Below, piece after piece: positions 1 to 6,877 of a stretch of 64,000 nt of DNA (the stretch's first letter is position 1; each line of letters opens with the position of its first letter). The stretch is from Xylographa opegraphella (Eukaryota): positions 1 to 64,000 of the forward strand of contig JALDZX010000037.1 in the NCBI GenBank assembly GCA_022813865.1, written 5' to 3'. The position numbers and the translations under genes were made by a program. Below the pieces are notes generated by a model, which searched no databases, was not told the DNA's origin, and saw only the letters and a program-made list of their open reading frames with translations.

Positions 1-983
1 CTCCCCCAACGCAGCACGCAGCTCAGCACTATACGCAACATCGCCGCCCTAGCCCATCAATTCTCCCCACCCCCTACCTCCCAGTCTCCCAATCCCCCAT
101 ACCGCCTCAAAAAGCACCCTTCCCCCCAATCGGTGCAACCAAAGCCCCACAAAGGACCACTTATTGTTTCCGCCGACCCCGCAACCCTCGACTCTAGGGC
201 ATGAAGCGTAGAAAGCCGGAAGCACACAATTCTTTCTTTCCTGGAGCATCACACCGGGATGCGGAGATACCTCCGGTAGAATGTGCCCATTGACAGGTTA
301 CCTAAGATAGATTGTGAAGCGGATGCATAGCACTTTCCCTGATCTTCTTCCCCCCACCTCGGTTGTCCCGTGTAGTTTAGGATAGCAAGGGTCTTGTGTT
401 GGCCTTGGAGAATGTGGGTTCAGATGCCGGTAGTAATGAGATGATGGGATGGTATGGAGCCATGCATTCAAGAGATGCCGAGGTGGTGGTTGAAAGGAAT
501 TCTGTGATTATTCCTTCGTGCCTTCATGCGCATGGGATGGTGGGGGCTGGCTGGCTGTGGCTTGCACGACTCGACGCCGAGCATAGTAGCAGAACAGGAA
601 ACAGAACGACCGGCGATATCGAAATCAACTTTACAGAATGTGACAATGCGTGGTTTGGCACTTGCTTTGGAATCCAATGTTACCAAATGAGTGTCTAAAT
701 CATCTTAAAGGTACACAGGACTCCGGTCGCCCGCTGCTGCACATCCCACATTAAAGCAGTGCAAACAAACAAACTACCGACGCCAAAAGTCTCAGTGCTA
801 CCAGTCCCATCCGATCATAACCTCTAACCTTTAATGAACACAAGCAATTGTCCAAGTGTCGCCATAGCACCGAGGTTTCCACAACAGCATATGATAGTTC
901 GGACGGTCCAAGAACCAGGTATTCCTTCCTACCTTCGCCTCCATTACCAATACCATCTATCATCAATCGAACGGAATGTTGAA

Positions 984-1203
984 GCTCAACATGTAGACAT
1001 AGACCAAGGTCAGTCGATACACGGAGCACTCAACAATCCCGAACTCGATCGACGAAGATAGGACTCTGCTAAATTCAGCACATAGACATACACCGAAGTC
1101 AGTCGATATGTGCTGAATATAGCCAGCCTGCTCCACAGCGAGATAGCGAGACAACTAACCAGATACGTAGACATACACCGAAGTCAGTCAATACGTAAAA
1201 GGT
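984..1203 (-). repeat. Three copies of a ~20-nt core, each closed by its own inverted repeat (stem-loop array)
   Basis: Core gacatacaccgaagtcagtc at 1085-1104 and 1170-1189, with a variant gacatagaccaaggtcagtc at 996-1015. The flanks differ between copies but are self-complementary, e.g. attcagcacata (1073-1084) / tatgtgctgaat (1107-1118). Confidence 0.85.
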
Positions 1204-1427
1204 CAATTGCCGTGCGATCAAGTTATGAAGTGGTGAATGGAGATGGTGGTAGGAATATGTGGTGATAGACCGTCGAACAAGGTATTGGTGTAACGACAGG
1301 AAAAGTGATGGACAGTGCTATGGAGACATGGTTGCAAAAAAAGGAGCGTAATAGTGGTAATCGAGCATAGAATGATGAAAACGTCCGGCGTCTCGGAGAA
1401 GCGGTAGAATCTTTGGTCTCCGATGCT

Positions 1428-2788
1428 TCAAAAGATGGACAGTTCGTCACAGGCTTCGTTTCCATACACCAGACTCTCACCCTCCAAACTTCCGGCCAAA
1501 GTGTTTCCGAGGGGTGTTTGAAATGTATGCTCTGGAGTAGTTTCCTCCTCATCCTTCGCGCTTTCACTTTCCCAAATCTCGATCTCCGCAGAAGATTCTT
1601 CTAGGCTCACAACTGGGCATACCACGGGAGTAGTGACGTCGGCTTTCTGGGTCACATCAATCTTAGCGGGGAAACCCTTCCATCCATCTTGAGAGCTTGG
1701 CATGCTAGCAGGCTCAGAAGAAGCAGCCACAGTGAGACTCTTATCGGTTAGACACTCGTTGGGCTTCTCGGTCTTATCATCAGTTGTCTCTGCGGGAACG
1801 ATAATGTAAGATGACACATCGCATCCATCAGCGTAGAAGTCGGCAGCGTCGAGGTCTCCAAGTGGTGTACGCGGCTCGTCAGTCATCACATCTTGTCGGA
1901 AACCTGATCGTGTTGCGACAACCATTGATGGATAGTCGGTAGGTGGAATATTTTCCTTTCCCCGATCATCATTTGCAGCACGACGACTTTCATCGTCAGA
2001 AATATCAACAGTTTGAAACGAAAATGACATAACGTTTCCAGTTTCCTCTTCCGGAGTATCTTCATGGATATCGAACATCCAGCCATTGGGGATAGATTCC
2101 TCAAGAGTAGGAACAGTGATGGCTGCTACAGGTTCCGCTTTGTACGATGAAACGGTGCCTGATAAGGCAGCATCAATAGAGAAAGGCATGCCATTGGCCA
2201 GACCAAAGGTCGGAGGATCAACCCTTGTGAAGGGTGATGACGATACCCTGCGGCGAGAAAGGATGCCAATACGTTTACTCTTGGGGGAACGACCAGCTGT
2301 GGCTGGGGCCGATGATGGTGTAGCAGCCTTGCGTGTTGAAGGACGGACAGCATCGAGGCGCTTTGGAGTGATGATGGGTCGTGCTAGAGCGGTAGGTGCA
2401 TCATATGTACTTTTCAAGACAAAATGAGAAACCTTGGCTGGCTTGATGGGATTGCCGTAAATATTCTTGGCTTTCTTCGAGGACGATTTGAGGTTCATGG
2501 GATCAATGTTCTCGGAGTCGACATCGTCGAAAGAGGGTGAGTATCGACGCTTGACTGGGGAAGCGAGAACTATAGGTGTAGCTACGAACGCGTTAATTAA
2601 CGTGTTAATCAAGCAAGAGATGGCTGACAGTATTGAAAAGGGAATTGTCGTCGTGAACTGTGCGCGTCAAGGATTTTATACATACCATTTTGACGATTCT
2701 TAACATTCGTGAGGTTGCGAAGTCTCGGTCCATCGAGACATGCGAAAGGCTGTCTTGCAGGAGACTGATACTGTGCGACAATGGCCAT
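1428..2788 (-). CDS. Disordered fungal protein with ABBA, KEN and D-box degrons (Acm1-like candidate)
   Basis: ATG at 2788 (MAIVAQYQSPARQPF). A phase-1 intron 2685-2582 (GTATGT...TAG) joins it in frame to the 394-aa ORF. Motifs FDIHED, GKENIPP and RTPLGDL, and many SP/TP sites. Confidence 0.8.
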
Positions 2789-3611
2789 TGCTAGCTCAAA
2801 AGCCAAAGGGCTTGGATGCTACTGGAGGTGGTGATGGTACGCCGAACTGGTGGTCTTGTTTGGAAGGAAACAAAGATGAAGATAAAAAAAAAAATTTGCA
2901 CACAGTCTGCTAGGTCAAGACTTAGTACTGAATTACACGACTAGCACAGTGAATGTCGGTGTGTTAATGAGAAAAAGGTGTTGAAGCTCTTCATGATGGC
3001 AGAGCCTGAGAAATTAGGACCATAGGTGATAAGTGGGGAACCCAACAGTGTATATCCTCCCTTTCTCCGCCGAGCAGACAAGAATTGGGCACTAGACCTT
3101 ACCTAGACACACTTCGTCGAGGAGCAATCAGAGGGCAAGAAACACGTCGGAGCAGCGCGCTGCTGAATCAACACTAATGCAGTCACGGCACCTTGCTTTG
3201 CAGCGCGACCCAGACGTGTCTGTGGGAGCGAGGCTCTCAGGCGCCGAGGCGCCAGTCGGAGATAGGGATAGCGTAGCAGTACGATGACGGCAAATGTGCT
3301 ACGCCGAAGCAGGAGCAAGGAAGAGTGCTTGAATGCGAAGGACGAGAGAGAGTGAGGATTGGTTGCTTGAGAAGGAAGACTTTCAGACTGTGGCGTTTGT
3401 TGGAGACGTTTTGTTTGGTGGGAAGCGAACGAGTTCGGCTCGGTTGATACGCGCTACGGGAGAAGTCTTGGCAAACACGACCCAGGCGCGAAATAGCAGC
3501 GCTAGACCAAGTTGATGTTAGTCTGGCACACTCACTACGGTGTCAGACCAAATCTGTGTCATTGGCATTCATTACTGTACAACCACTGCTTGTGCACGTT
3601 TCTGCTGCCGC

Positions 3612-3686
3612 TGCCTCAGGTTACCGTTCGTTGAGTATTGTGCCTCAGGTTGCCGTTCATTTGGTGTGCTGCCTCAGGTTACCGTT
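3612..3686. repeat. Tandem repeat, 29-bp period, 3 copies of tgcctcaggtt(a/g)ccgtt
   Basis: Copies start at 3612, 3641 and 3670. Confidence 0.9.
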
Positions 3687-5029
3687 GTTTCCAATAATCT
3701 GCATATCAACCTTACAGCGTGGGAACACTCCCAGTGCTCTCTTTCACAAGCCTCTGCTACGAATAGACGATTGTGCATATGCAGCCCCTCGTCCTCTCAT
3801 ATTATACTCACATGTCGATCACGCGTTCTTGCACGTACATGTGGAAAGCGACTGGCTCATGATAGGAGCCCTGGGGGGGATCGTCCGGACTATTGTGTAT
3901 GATTTCTCTCTTGTTTGAGATCATCTTCGACGTTGTCACCAATGTCCCACTATTCGACTGGTCATTCCACCTGATGTATGTTCCCACAGGCAGACGGACC
4001 GACTTTCGAACAAGTGATAAGCCCTCGACTTCCTCCCTAGACCACGGCTTCCTTATATCCCAACTGCCGGTCAAGTTTATCCCCTGTTTCGAAGCGTTTC
4101 ATTCCTTCGTATCAAGTCCGATTAATGATGCCGGCTACTGAAACCATTGTTCAGTACCATCAGAATCTTACTCTTCGCTGGGTACTTGTGTATGTTTCGA
4201 AGCCATTGGATGCGCTGACAGGCTAACCCAAGCACTGCGTGAAGACTTGAGCTTAGAGATGGAGAATGTTCAGCGGATCAGGCAATTGCTGTTTCATTGA
4301 AAAGATCCCTGCCCAGCATGACTCTCATGGGTTGTGTGGTGGAAGGATGGCTTGGTCCATCATTATTCTCTGCTTGTTAGCCTACGCGCTATTGGCTTGT
4401 TGCCTGGGACGTCAGGACTCGGTGCTGCAGACTTATATTGACTCGACAGGCAGCATATACATTGTGACGGCAAGTATCTTCGGGTCTTCCATGCTGTGAG
4501 CCTGTGGGTGCGTCTGTGGGTGCATCGCCAACGCACGTAGGCGAGGGCACTTCGCGTACGAAGATCTAGTGTAGCTACGTATAAGATTAACGGATTAAAG
4601 ACGAGGCATCGTTCACCCAGTTTCGAGGTGCAAATCCCCAAACAATCAGCTTCCACTTCCGAGCATATTTCCCCGGAGACTGATGGAAGCGTTCCCGGGA
4701 GGATGTGATTGCTCCGGTATGTCACGCACAAGGCGCCGCTGTCGGTATCATCTACGAGGCAAACGGCTTCGGAGACAAAAGTCACAGTAAGACAAAACAT
4801 GATCTATGGGAGCACGTCGGATATGGGAGAAATTTTTGTTTGCAGAACGCGGAGCTATAGCTCACGCTTGGCCTATGTTTCTGTCTCTTGCCCGACACTA
4901 AAACTATCCAGTCTTCGGGACCAGCTATTGGAATTGACAGTGAAACTTTTTTGACGACTCTCGCAGATAACTGAGACACTGGTATATAGATAAAAATATA
5001 TATACAAGAACATCATACGGTCAACCGGT

Positions 5030-6877
5030 CTATATGTATTTATATGGATTCATAATGCCGTTCTGCAAGCAATGTGAGCGTCTCGACCTAACGGGTAACG
5101 TCATACATAATACGACTGGAATGGAACGTACCGGATCGTAAAGATTCTTGATCTGCTTCATCAACCTGATCATGGTCTCGCTCCGGCTGTACCCAATATA
5201 CGGCTTCTTCGCGACCCCCAGACCATGCTCTGCACTGATACTTCCATGACGCTTCTGAATCCACTCGTAGATGAAGGGCTCCAGCGTTTTTTCAACGTTC
5301 TTGTCGAAGCTGCGCGTGACGATATTGAGATGCAGATTCGAATCGCCCATGTGCCCGTATCCTACGACACCCACCACGGGGTGACTGTCAGTATCCCCGA
5401 CCAAGCCCGCTTTCGTCAATCGCTCACGGGTGTCCTCGACCAGCGAATACATTTCGGCAATGGGGATCGAAACATCGTATTTGTAGACCCCGCCGAAGTG
5501 CCCCAGACTCTCAGCAATACCTTCACGCCATCCCCAGAGTGCTTGCATTTGAGTCTCGTCCTGTGCGAGAACACCATCGACGACAATTTCCTCACCCATG
5601 ACGTGCTCCAAGAATGCTTCCAACTTTTGGCTGTCGTGGTCGGAATTGGAGCCACTGGTTTCTATGAGACAGTAGAACGGATATTTGCCTTCCAGCGGAC
5701 GCTTATTCTTCGTCGCAGTATGCACAAGATCCTGGCTCTCGCCATCCATCAGCTCGAAGGCGGAGAGGATCTCAGAGAGCTTGCCCTTGGCTTCCCGAAA
5801 TGCTTGTTGGACCTTCTCGAAGCTCTCAAGACCGAAAAAGGCAACGTTCATAGCTTTGGAACGTTGAGGGCAGTGAATGGAGACACCAGTTATAATGCCT
5901 ATGGTCCCTTCACCTCCGATGAAGAGCTGCTTGATATCATAGCCCGTATTGTTCTTCCTTAGTGTTGTCAAGTCATCGACGATGGTTCCATCCGGTAAAA
6001 CGGCTTCTATTCCAAGCACATTACCGTGCATGCTACCATAACGCAGCAAGCGAAGTCCGCCAGCATTGGTAGCAACATTGCCCCCTATGTGACATGAACC
6101 CTTTGCGCCCAAATCCAAGGGGAATATGTGACTCCGTTCTGCTAGATATTTATCGGCGACCTCGAGTATGACACCGGCATCGACTACCAGAGAGCCAGAA
6201 ACCTCATCAAACGACCGTATCTGGTTGAGTCTGGAGAGGCTGATCACAATCTCGTCGAAAACAGGCACAGATCCTCCGACGAGGCCAGAATTACCACCTT
6301 GTGGCACCACAGCCAGCATGTTATCATTGCAGTATTTCAATACCTTGCTGACCTCTTCTGTCGAACCAGGCTTCACAACGAGTTTTGTATGCCCCTTATA
6401 CTTGCGCATCCAATCAGTATTGAAGGCCTCCAGATCGTCTGTGGCATCATTCGATACGCCATCGATGATAGCTGATCCAGTTCCAACGATTTTCTTCAGA
6501 GAATTTACGTGGTCAATAGTGATCTACACAACATTAGAAGGGGATTCAGTCATGTATTGGCAGCGAATTTCTACCGGCGAAAATCTATCATCCCTCTTGA
6601 TATCAAGATACCTGTGCAGTAGACATCAGCACAGTGAGGGCGTTCACAAGAGCTGTTGAATAGCGCACGATTCGGAAGTGAATTTAATGTGATGGTGAGA
6701 GCTCGCAGAACCTTGAACGCCCCCATCAGCATCTGGTTGGAGGGGCTCCGTAGATGCGGTACTCCAACGAATCTGTGTTGTGCACTTGGAGAATGAAAGA
6801 TACTCCGGACAAATACATGGCTTTGCCAATGGTCTAAGCTGGCGGCAAGCACCTAACAGTCGCGACCGCATCGCCAT
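5030..6877 (-). CDS. DLD2: Mitochondrial FAD-linked D-lactate/D-2-hydroxyglutarate dehydrogenase
   Basis: [46 protein letters not shown] and C-terminal NGIMNPYK. Arg-rich N-terminal presequence. Three introns, the last at 5131-5063. Confidence 0.93.

Follow-up and report, generated by a model that had tools for sequence, protein, structure and literature searches.

We know of few cis-acting structured RNA signals in filamentous fungi, and none described for lichen-forming fungi was found in the literature searched. The histone stem-loop is a single hairpin of 6 bp with a 4-nt loop that forms the 3' end of the mRNA. The CDE of vertebrate 3'UTRs, bound by Roquin, is a pyrimidine-purine-pyrimidine tri-loop on a short stem of 5-8 bp, and no ROQ-domain binder is known to us in fungi. 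The Smaug/Vts1 element is a CNGG(N) loop on a short stem, the Puf5 motif is UGUA-N4-UA, and yeast Rnt1p cuts about 13-16 bp below the loop of its hairpins. Cooperation within one message has been reported for the six stem-loops of the Nfkbid 3'UTR (PMC6145892, accessible part of the paper). According to the available text of another report, messages bound by yeast Puf5p are enriched for spindle-pole-body components, which provides a precedent for a fungal spindle-pole-body mRNA regulon (PMC368173), and the accessible portions of two further papers have yeast Rnt1 acting on protein-coding and cell-cycle messages (PMC13183374, PMC6572803). Covariation-supported RNA motifs have also been catalogued in the non-coding portions of Pezizomycotina genes, including four or five 3'UTR structures; the available parts of these catalogues describe the motifs as predominantly single copy per genome and tie none of them to a Cep57/Ppc89 gene or to the gene family of the locus considered here (Li and Breaker 2017, PMC5640933; Gao, Jones and Rivas 2021, PMC8216456).

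The locus lies in a 64-kb stretch of Xylographa opegraphella DNA, referred to hereafter as the window. Its features are as follows.

1428..2498, minus strand: last exon of the host gene, an open reading frame with its stop codon at 1428-1430
1232..1345, minus strand: 5' flank of an optional enclosing stem, pairing with 850-966 around the array
1254..1271, minus strand: decayed fourth half-copy (3' half of the apex plus stem), repeat family D2, 78% identity
1148..1211, minus strand: hairpin A, nearest the gene, with apex 1170-1189, loop UUCG and 2-nt bulge UU
about 1131-1230, minus strand: local extent of hairpin A in the minimum-free-energy fold
1063..1126, minus strand: hairpin B, with apex 1085-1104, loop UUCG and bulge UC
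about 1060-1129, minus strand: local extent of hairpin B in the minimum-free-energy fold
974..1037, minus strand: hairpin C, with apex 996-1015 and loop CUUG
about 960-1055, minus strand: local extent of hairpin C in the minimum-free-energy fold
850..966, minus strand: 3' flank of the optional enclosing stem, with inverted repeats I1, I3, I4, I6, I7 and I9

The three hairpins (974-1037, 1063-1126 and 1148-1211) share a 20-nt apex. An earlier note on this DNA had described them as a triple stem-loop array with a conserved apex and interchangeable stems, and the structural details that it gave are all present in the sequence. A repeat search of the window recovered the spacing of 89 and 85 nt, start to start, with the three members of a direct-repeat family at 991-1022, 1080-1111 and 1165-1196. 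On the minus strand the 2-nt bulges of the first, second and third copies read UC, UC and UU and the loops CUUG, UUCG and UUCG. The first copy (974-1037) does require one G.U pair, and the 17-bp stem with one mismatch ascribed to the second copy corresponds to the arms of hairpin B (inverted repeat I2, 1068-1084 / 1107-1123), which are 17 nt long and 94% complementary. The array, taken as 984-1203, lies 225-444 nt past the end of the reading frame (stop codon included, at 1428), and 239 nt separate the stop codon from the first apex. The preference for the minus strand was likewise borne out, since the fold of 960-1230 reaches -110.9 kcal/mol (z -8.85) on that strand compared to -78.6 kcal/mol (z -5.44) on the plus strand. 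By minimum-free-energy folding the hairpins are longer than the cores first described, about 70-100 nt each.

The apex pattern GACTGACYTYGGTSTATGTC has exactly three matches in the window, all on the minus strand (996-1015, 1085-1104 and 1170-1189), while dinucleotide shuffles gave a mean of 0.03 matches and none of 100 shuffles reached three. With the covariance model R1, hairpin A scored 61.3 bits (E 5e-16) with an exact apex match, hairpin B 59.1 bits and hairpin C 63.5 bits. Hairpin C carries a G36 to C change by which a G/G mismatch becomes a G-C pair, and it has the lower box GCUC / UU-GAGC common to the element family. The decayed half-copy at 1254-1271, 92 nt upstream of hairpin A, was not found by the covariance model at E up to 10.

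Alignment of 26 distinct copies from the window and its relatives defined a consensus unit of about 44 nt with 15 pairs, two bulges at fixed places and a conserved apex of 20 nt that contains an internal loop and a tetraloop. The 5' strand reads GCUC - 3 covarying bp - GUA - UY bulge - GAC U GAC and leads to a UNCG-type loop; the 3' strand then reads GUG UAU GUC - UAC - 3 bp - UU bulge - GAGC. GACUGAC and AUGUCU are present in all 26 copies. The loop is UUCG in 21 copies, and UGCG, UCCG, CUUG, UUUG and one enlarged loop occur once each. Of the paired cells, 91.5% hold a pair, compared to 27-45% with the 3' partners slid 1-3 columns along. The covariation score was 0.353 against 0.181 ± 0.017 in shuffles, none of 500 reaching the observed value; this shuffle control overstates independence because many of the aligned copies are orthologues, and the slid-partner control is the fairer one. 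Pairs 16/55, 17/54 and 18/53 are never broken despite being made by 5, 6 and 3 pair types, respectively, and RNAalifold alone predicts 11 of the 15 pairs. The claim that the stems keep pairing while their sequence changes holds across relatives, where the stem covaries. The sense strand has 37 G.U pairs against 9 A.C cells, which would be G.U on the opposite strand, and the sense fold was at least 15 kcal/mol below the antisense fold in 7 of 11 regions among those listed. The element therefore appears, from its pattern of substitution, to work as RNA on the strand of the host gene.

None of the described families compared here accounts for this hairpin. The earlier note did not recognise it, and a cmscan of window positions 1-4000 against Rfam 15, both strands and E up to 10, agrees with this, giving only five weak matches; the sole match on the array, bxd_5 on the plus strand, scored 15.3 bits where the gathering score is 50, and is attributed to chance. 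Full-text literature searches for 14-nt apex strings returned unrelated papers only, and searches of the literature on lichen RNA structure and on spindle-pole-body mRNA localisation brought up no description of the element. The CNGG loop of the Smaug/Vts1 element is found in no copy. A box C/D snoRNA was rejected, as CUGA lies in the apex and not at an end, no C box (RUGAUGA) is in register and no snoRNA of Rfam matched. Readings of the consensus internal loop by eye as a K-turn, a sarcin-ricin or a C/D-box motif were also rejected: the GA/AG or AGUA/GAA words are out of register and the would-be bulged G varies. The architecture is like that of the Roquin CDE, with several small hairpins that have a common loop and upper stem and free lower stems, and that would act together and be common to functionally related messages. 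The lichen hairpins differ in having loops of at least four letters, an internal loop and two bulges, and there is no sequence relation. As proposed here, the element would also resemble the histone mRNA stem-loop and SLBP, a conserved 3' hairpin linking a gene set to the division cycle via a dedicated binder, but it consists of one to five copies of a 15-bp bulged hairpin.

Relatives were collected by scanning metagenomes for exact matches to the apex pattern. This gave 29 loci, whose first apex is invariant partly by construction because the loci were recruited by that match, and the scan cannot retrieve orthologues without the element. The whole hairpin of about 44 nt is present in 24 loci. 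The other five were judged chance matches: L014, L020 and L023 match the covariance model over the 20-nt apex only, and L019 scored 35.6 bits at a G+C of 0.58-0.60, L021 being the same sequence. The earlier note had looked to orthologues of the host gene, and 15 of the 24 hairpin loci do have an orthologue of the window protein upstream on the same strand (47-56% protein identity), ending about 205-337 nt before the first apex. Six more lie 70-270 nt behind a gene of the Cep57/Ppc89 spindle-pole-body type and three have other or unresolved contexts.

In L002, L003 and L013 the hairpins follow a Cep57_MT_bd/PPC89 gene (E 5e-21 to 6e-30) by 70-270 nt on the same strand and sit between it and a convergent MAT1 gene, a position that can only be a 3' region. 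The Cep57 proteins of these three loci are mutually only 39-44% identical. The downstream neighbour varies with lineage: L006 and L007 have a DNA ligase on the same strand, whereas that of L004 is a convergent CN-hydrolase. The number of copies per locus ranges from one (L013 and L018) to five, and in most loci adjacent copies follow at intervals of 78-106 nt. The upstream gene of L001 matched no Pfam family and had no usable Atlas match. That of L018/L027 resembles Nup53 (score 0.98 in the Atlas, and a sub-threshold Pfam match to RRM_Nup35 at E 0.0017) and was rejected as host, its reading frame ending about 1 kb before the hairpin.

The lineage of each locus was judged from the identity of its host protein to named proteins, the nearest of which belong to Pleopsidium/Acarospora (84% and 78%) and Cladonia (58-63%). 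By this measure the element appears widespread in Lecanoromycetes, with three lineages including the Xylographa of the window. When diverged orthologues are compared, the 3' sequence cannot be aligned except at the hairpins, which stand out as conserved islands; among L007, L006 and L011, bins that hold hairpins have a three-way identity of 0.70, compared to 0.00-0.30 elsewhere in the 3' sequence. This degree of conservation indicates that the hairpin is under purifying selection. The copies are not those of a dispersed transposon remnant, the outcome that the earlier note had set against its own reading. The covariance model found only the three array copies in 64 kb, and a search at 80% likeness of a 31-Mb DNA contig set (X1), possibly from the same source, added only two short unitigs, which point to one further two-copy locus. 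A second contig set (X2) gave a single 41-nt piece, in the coding region, and a third (X3) no match to the window region. Tandem Repeats Finder reported no array at the hairpins.

The host protein in the window has 418 amino acids and is 100% identical to 'hypothetical protein [Xylographa opegraphella]'. A protein search returned 1019 homologous proteins; no Pfam family matched and, at E up to 10, no PDB relative was found. The alignment has invariant K-E-N-x-P-P, R-x-x-L and W-x-F-x-I-[HY]-E-D motifs, which by eye may be read as KEN, D-box and ABBA-type degrons. The label 'Acm1-like' given to the gene earlier therefore finds no homology in Pfam or the PDB and keeps only these short degron-like motifs; a protein of cell-cycle type is a reading of the motifs rather than a result of homology.

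On balance, and with slightly more confidence than doubt, we take the array to be a new cis-acting structured 3'UTR RNA element that docks a putative RNA-binding factor on a few cell-division messages. Its placement in the 3'UTR is inferred from position and strand, poly(A) sites ahead of the array being conceivable, and both the binding of a protein and the resulting effect are likewise deduced. The element would be carried in the sense orientation in the 3'UTR of a few messages of lichen-forming Lecanoromycetes. An RNA-binding factor specific for both sequence and shape would dock at the invariant apex (GACUGAC opposite G-U-N-AUGUCU), whose form a stable tetraloop and bulges in fixed positions would maintain; the stems would need only to pair. 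With one to five copies per message, binding could be multivalent and cooperative and would govern how stable the message is, how it is translated or where it is located. The earlier note had offered a multimeric 3'UTR element or a small-RNA precursor. The former gains from the orthologues, the covariation and the lack of dispersal, while the latter is weakened because it is the apex, not an arm, that is conserved and because long stems are not family-wide. Since the two host families identified are a degron-rich protein of cell-cycle type and the Cep57/Ppc89 spindle-pole-body protein, the distribution suggests that some nuclear-division genes make up a small post-transcriptional regulon, an idea founded on those two families.

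A bolder version, which we advance tentatively and regard as doubtful, makes the hairpin the address label of a class-wide nuclear-division regulon. A dedicated RNA-binding protein would read the label and either time the decay of the messages to the division cycle or bring them to the spindle pole body or the nuclear envelope, where they would be translated locally. Members might include the degron-rich APC/C-linked protein, Ppc89/Cep57 and perhaps others.

It is unlikely, in our estimate, that the hairpins are instead processed by a nuclease specific for double strands (Dicer or an orthologue of Rnt1/RNase III), which is positioned by the apex and cleaves the lower stem, destroying the message, terminating transcription or freeing small RNAs. 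The hairpins of the window do continue as imperfect duplexes of 70-100 nt. Compared to shuffled flanks, their lower stems had z scores of -3.2 (A), -1.0 (B) and -4.2 (C), and those of some relatives are well beyond chance (L015a, z -8.1; L004a, z -4.7). As in the AGNN hairpins of Rnt1p, there is an apex that would be recognised, stem sequence is free, and the position is in or behind coding genes including cell-cycle genes; the conserved GCUC / UU-GAGC box also lies about 13-16 bp below the loop. A substrate of Rnt1p would have a duplex of some 14-16 bp or more under its loop; the conserved core has 15 pairs with bulges, and its extension is significant in some copies only. However, in 16 of the 22 hairpins tested the lower stem did not surpass shuffled flanks (z above -2), and with only six at z -2 or lower, long lower stems were rejected as a family feature. 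The loops are UUCG, CUUG, UUUG, UCCG or UGCG, never AGNN. Locus L001 has five apex-like units in 255 nt without long stems (mean 0.34 per shuffled locus), and this multiplication of the apex without stems fits a binding site better than a double-stranded substrate. For small RNAs in particular, a microRNA-like precursor should have a conserved arm and a free loop, and the opposite pattern is seen.

The hairpins might belong to a separate non-coding RNA gene downstream of the host genes, in the window a domain of about 480 nt closed by the flank stem, but we think this quite improbable. The 641-nt region around the array folds with z -9.2, and in the window the two flanks pair at -39.9 kcal/mol compared to -23.0 ± 5.5 kcal/mol in shuffles (z -3.05), better than 148 of 150 shuffles, the other two being as good. 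On the antisense strand the flanks pair no less strongly (-52.4 kcal/mol), and the pairing is therefore attributed to an inverted repeat at the level of DNA. Among seven other loci only L003 has an enclosing stem (z -4.3) and five lack it; a long-range stem, present in the window and L003 only, was thus rejected as a feature of the family. The 3' region outside the hairpins is not conserved. Moreover, behind each of two unrelated genes the hairpins keep the same strand and the same short distance to the stop codon irrespective of the downstream neighbour, which is the behaviour expected of parts of a message.

A linear PUF site of the Puf5/Mpt5 type (UGUA-N4-UA) on the 3' side of the apex, with the hairpin merely masking or presenting it, would be a surprising outcome. 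UGUA(N4-6)UA occurs in 18 of the 26 distinct copies, and a fungal 3'UTR signal common to spindle-pole-body messages is what the accessible text on Puf5p describes (PMC368173). The motif is missing in the other eight copies, including hairpin C of the window, and where present it is mostly base-paired in the consensus structure, but PUF proteins bind single strands and their sites are linear and unstructured. The site would also give no account of the bulges, the covarying stem or the invariance of the 5' strand, and the invariant letters lie partly outside the PUF-like word.

We give very little credence to a mimic of splice signals, in which ACUGAC is a branch site and GUAUGU a 5' splice site, serving 3'UTR introns or as a decoy for the spliceosome or U1. 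CUGAC is found in 26 of 26 copies and GUAUGU in 20, and the usual spacing of 78-106 nt is an intron-like distance for fungi. Within the hairpin, however, the branch site precedes the donor, the reverse of the order in a spliceosomal intron, and the two words pair with each other. GUAUGU is missing in six of the 26 copies, the word conserved after the branch-like site is UUGAGC rather than a YAG, and two loci, L013 and L018, have a single copy. Neutral or selfish repeated DNA with no RNA function, be it a MITE-like palindrome or a tandem duplication, is scarcely credible and already largely refuted: tandem copies, palindromic arms and flanks that pair at least as well antisense as sense (-52.4 against -39.9 kcal/mol) would suit it, but here the centre is invariant and the arms vary, the opposite of a MITE, G.U pairs favour one strand by 37 to 9, the orthologous positions behind two gene families are kept in three lineages (47-56% host-protein identity) as islands amid diverged sequence, and there are only three copies in 64 kb with no array called by Tandem Repeats Finder.

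Read as a docking site in the 3'UTR, the hairpin is a small, sharply defined and covariation-supported element that has been kept in three Lecanoromycete lineages whose host proteins are about half identical, and its two unrelated host genes both point to nuclear division. It offers handles in the form of a 44-nt bait for pull-down and a covariance model with which every labelled message can be listed. If the binder is a new type of hairpin reader, it would add a fungal example to the few such readers known, SLBP, Roquin and Smaug/Vts1 among them, and should the element occur outside Lecanoromycetes, genetically tractable moulds could serve to test it. The address-label reading, if true, would provide a fungal counterpart of the histone stem-loop and SLBP or of the targeting of centrosomal mRNAs in animals. 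For the lichen fungi themselves, which grow slowly, the element may open a route to the post-transcriptional control of division-related messages.

The minus strand of the window contains the 20-nt word GACUGAC-YUYG-GUSUAUGUC three times, and in all three units the word is the top (the apex) of a hairpin. The features concerned are:

1428-2498, minus strand: last exon of the host gene, which lies upstream of the array (stop codon 1428-1430)
1254-1271: decayed half-copy, found by repeat comparison in the window
1148-1211, minus strand: hairpin A (apex 1170-1189)
1063-1126, minus strand: hairpin B (apex 1085-1104)
974-1037, minus strand: hairpin C (apex 996-1015)

Three occurrences of the exact apex pattern in 64 kb compare with 0.03 expected, and at least three were reached in 0 of 100 shuffles. 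Start-to-start spacing is 89 and 85 nt, as the earlier note had stated, and the bulges, loops and stems that it described match the minus-strand sequence. Tandem Repeats Finder reported no array at the hairpin region because the likeness among the units is limited to their tops. From 1230 to 960 (271 nt), the minus strand folds into three successive hairpins at -110.9 kcal/mol (z -8.85) compared to -78.6 kcal/mol (z -5.44) for the plus strand. The placement of the array downstream of a minus-strand gene also held, with 239 nt between the stop codon and the start of the first apex. The observation in the earlier note is confirmed and its interpretation is supported to the extent that it could be tested.

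Relatives were sought by a metagenome scan that required the exact apex pattern, and the counts of loci cover carriers of that pattern. The scan yielded 29 loci (L001-L029). Three of these (L014, L020 and L023) were set aside as probable chance matches, the match to the covariance model R1 being confined to the 20-nt apex. L019 (35.6 bits, G+C 0.58-0.60) and L021, which has the same sequence, were also judged to be probable chance. L019 was the only non-fungal-looking match that also pairs; its match (2978-3042) has the exact apex word within a short GGCG/CGCC stem and most likely arose by chance within a bacterial gene. The remaining 24 loci, which are redundant (many are one sequence recovered from more than one assembly, leaving about 11 different versions), have a G+C near 0.5 and a likeness that extends well beyond the scan pattern. 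Their consensus reads GCUC, three free letters, GUAU, Y, the apex, UAC, three letters pairing with the first three, UU and GAGC.

Twenty-three distinct hairpins were aligned (A1), a 15-pair structure was written and its pairs were counted. R1, built from A1, gave 29 matches at E below 1e-10 in 16 sources and recovered second copies that fall outside the exact pattern (L015:3144-3209, L004:3132-3197 and L002:2859-2926). A further alignment of 26 distinct rows (A3) was fitted to the covariance model. Paired cells made up 90.1% of A1 and 91.5% of A3, compared to 27-43% and 27-45%, respectively, when the partners were slid. The covariation scores of 0.368 (A1) and 0.353 (A3), relative to 0.195 and 0.181 in shuffles, were reached by 0 of 500 shuffles in each case, a control that overstates independence because many rows are orthologues; the slid-partner control is free of this weakness. 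The three pairs directly below the conserved GUA/UAC were unbroken in A3, with three to six pair types each, and the structure predicted by RNAalifold itself recovered 11 of the 15 pairs. On the strand shown, A1 contains 37 G.U pairs, compared to nine A.C cells (G.U on the opposite strand), and among the 11 regions listed, seven had a sense fold at least 15 kcal/mol below the antisense. The structure is thus one of RNA and belongs to the upstream gene's strand.

All 26 distinct copies contained GACUGAC and AUGUCU. The loop was UUCG in 21 of these and UGCG, UCCG, CUUG, UUUG or enlarged in the others, variation that a structural tetraloop would permit. In two copies C replaced G36, which lies opposite G27, and formed a pair there; one copy had A at this position. 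The internal loop carried a 2-nt insertion on its 3' side in two copies. The lower stems of the window are long, with hairpins reaching 70-100 nt. Relative to shuffled flanks, lower stems were significant for hairpin A (z -3.2), hairpin C (z -4.2) and some relatives, with z -8.1 for L015a and -4.7 for L004a (hairpins within L015 and L004), and 16 of the 22 hairpins tested had z above -2. A stem enclosing the array in the window (-39.9 vs -23.0 +/- 5.5 kcal/mol; z -3.05, equalled by 2 of 150 shuffles) was at least equally strong on the antisense strand, and among seven other loci only L003 had one (z -4.3). The long lower stems and the enclosing stem are local embellishments, not family-wide features.

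The ORF upstream of the array forms the final exon of a gene for a 418-aa protein whose sequence shows 100% identity to that of a 'hypothetical protein' named for Xylographa opegraphella, which places the window in a lichen-forming ascomycete. The next recognisable gene upstream encodes a D-lactate-dehydrogenase-type oxidase (5030-6409, minus strand; 459-aa ORF with FAD_binding_4, E 2e-38, and FAD-oxidase_C, E 1.5e-57). A weak Hammerhead_HH9 match at 3878-3928 on the minus strand (16.2 bits vs a gathering score of 52, E 3) was taken as chance. The host protein family, with 1019 matches at E up to 0.001, belongs to no Pfam family and lacks a PDB relative, and the 'thymidylate kinase' label on some members is unsupported by sequence. 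Invariant in the family are K-E-N-x-P-P, R-x-x-L and W-x-F-x-I-[HY]-E-D, which we take to be putative KEN, D-box and ABBA-type degrons of the APC/C. The invariant motif string in the family alignment (A2) is GRSPKSKRIGILSRRR, PFSIDAAL, WxFxI[HY]ED, LDISDDE, GKENIPP, MMTDEPRxPLGDL, IEIWESES. When the window's protein and 120 family members were used as tblastn queries, a same-strand orthologue (47-56% identity to the window's protein) was found upstream of the hairpins in 15 of the 24 loci (L004, L006-L011, L015, L017, L022, L024-L026, L028 and L029). In alignments complete to the end of the query, the first apex follows 205-337 nt later. The gene past the hairpins is a same-strand DNA ligase in L006 and L007 and a convergent carbon-nitrogen hydrolase in L004; since the downstream gene varies by lineage, the hairpins travel with the upstream gene.

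A second host was found in L002, L003 and L013, where the upstream same-strand gene contains Cep57_MT_bd (E 5e-21 to 6e-30) and a PPC89 centrosome-localisation domain; we take it to be the Ppc89 type of spindle-pole-body protein. L005, L012 and L016 share this context by identical flanks. In L002, L003 and L013, 70-270 nt separate the end of the ORF from the first apex and a MAT1 gene converges from the far side; lying between convergent genes, the hairpins can only occupy a 3' region. The three proteins are 39-44% identical to each other, and the convergent pair formed with MAT1 (CDK-activating kinase assembly factor), hairpins between, is conserved in these diverged loci. In L001 the hairpins stand behind a coiled-coil gene (ORF end 2703), with WD40 gene ORFs from 3276. 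L018 and L027 each contain a single well-formed hairpin (2979-3042 in both; 67.5 and 63.8 bits) about 1 kb behind a Nup53-like nucleoporin ORF (675-1958), a gene left uncounted as a host because of this distance. No recognisable gene lies in between, and the hairpin belongs either to a very long 3'UTR or to another, unrecognised host.

Conservation was concentrated on the hairpins. In 40-nt bins, three-way identity among the diverged loci L007, L006 and L011 was 0.70 over the hairpins and 0.00-0.30 in the rest of the post-stop region, with the best coding bins at 0.62-0.72. For L004 compared to L015, the first hairpin gave 0.88 and 0.78 and its surroundings 0.25-0.53. The nearest named proteins to the L015 and L004 hosts are from Pleopsidium and Acarospora (84% and 78%), and those to the L006, L007/L010 and L011 hosts are from Cladonia (58-63%); together with Xylographa, these lineages represent three subclasses of Lecanoromycetes. 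Two copies 78-165 nt apart are the rule among the loci, with one in L013 and L018. L001 contains five apex-like units with short stems in 255 nt (2766-3020, plus strand; mean 0.34 per shuffled locus), at 1, 1, 2, 2 and 5 substitutions from the consensus. Some of these alternate with small C(UUCG)G hairpins, and the array is denser and differently built than those of other loci. The contig set of DNA run X1 (31 million letters, compared at 80% likeness) is a possible source of the window and so not independent of it. Beyond the window's own contig, it contained two unitigs, one of 33 nt at double depth and one of 127 nt with both ends matching window 1166-1195. These point to one further locus in the same genome with two apexes about 99 nt apart. 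The earlier note had considered dispersed transposon remnants; R1 found three copies only in the 64-kb window and one further two-apex locus is indicated. The family is low-copy, not a dispersed repeat.

Rfam 15 gave nothing relevant for window 1-4000 at E up to 10, and a full-text literature search with 14-nt apex strings returned unrelated matches only. Two catalogues of fungal structured RNAs include 3'UTR structures for thioredoxin, a RING-finger protein, a thioesterase, GLY1 and MET13, mostly single copy per genome (PMC5640933, PMC8216456). The element represents a genuine family of structured RNA in Lecanoromycete fungi, for which these searches gave no earlier description.

An invariant bulged apex, stems conserved in pairing only, a fixed strand, a short fixed distance from the stop codon, variable copy number and two unrelated genes form the signature of a cis-acting 3'UTR binding site for a trans-acting factor, and we lean towards this role for the hairpins. 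Processing by a nuclease would suit the long duplexes of the window and the box conserved at about 13-16 bp from the loop, further down the stem, but it is unlikely given that many copies are short-stemmed and that L001 fits poorly. That the array is a separate non-coding RNA gene is rather more doubtful, as this does not explain why the hairpins stand in a fixed relation to the stop codon in both host genes. Less plausible yet as the functional unit is the PUF-type word UGUA(N4-6)UA, which is found in 18 of 26 copies but is missing from eight and does not explain the 5' strand. Mimicry of splice signals is very improbable: the apex does hold a branch-site-like and a donor-like word, but their order is wrong, GUAUGU is missing from 6 of 26 copies and no acceptor follows. 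Neutral repeat DNA is scarcely credible in view of the covariation, strand bias, orthologous positions and conservation footprint.

If the hairpins are a cis-acting binding site, the bulged apex would be bound by the factor and the stems would need only to pair. We infer both the binder and its effect on the message, which might be on decay, translation or localisation. In this proposed working the element resembles the multi-hairpin 3'UTR signals of animals, without being related to any of these. For yeast Puf5p, a known 3'UTR-based regulon takes in spindle-pole-body messages (PMC368173). The host genes described here, a Ppc89/Cep57 spindle-pole-body protein and a family with putative degron motifs, suggest a common theme.
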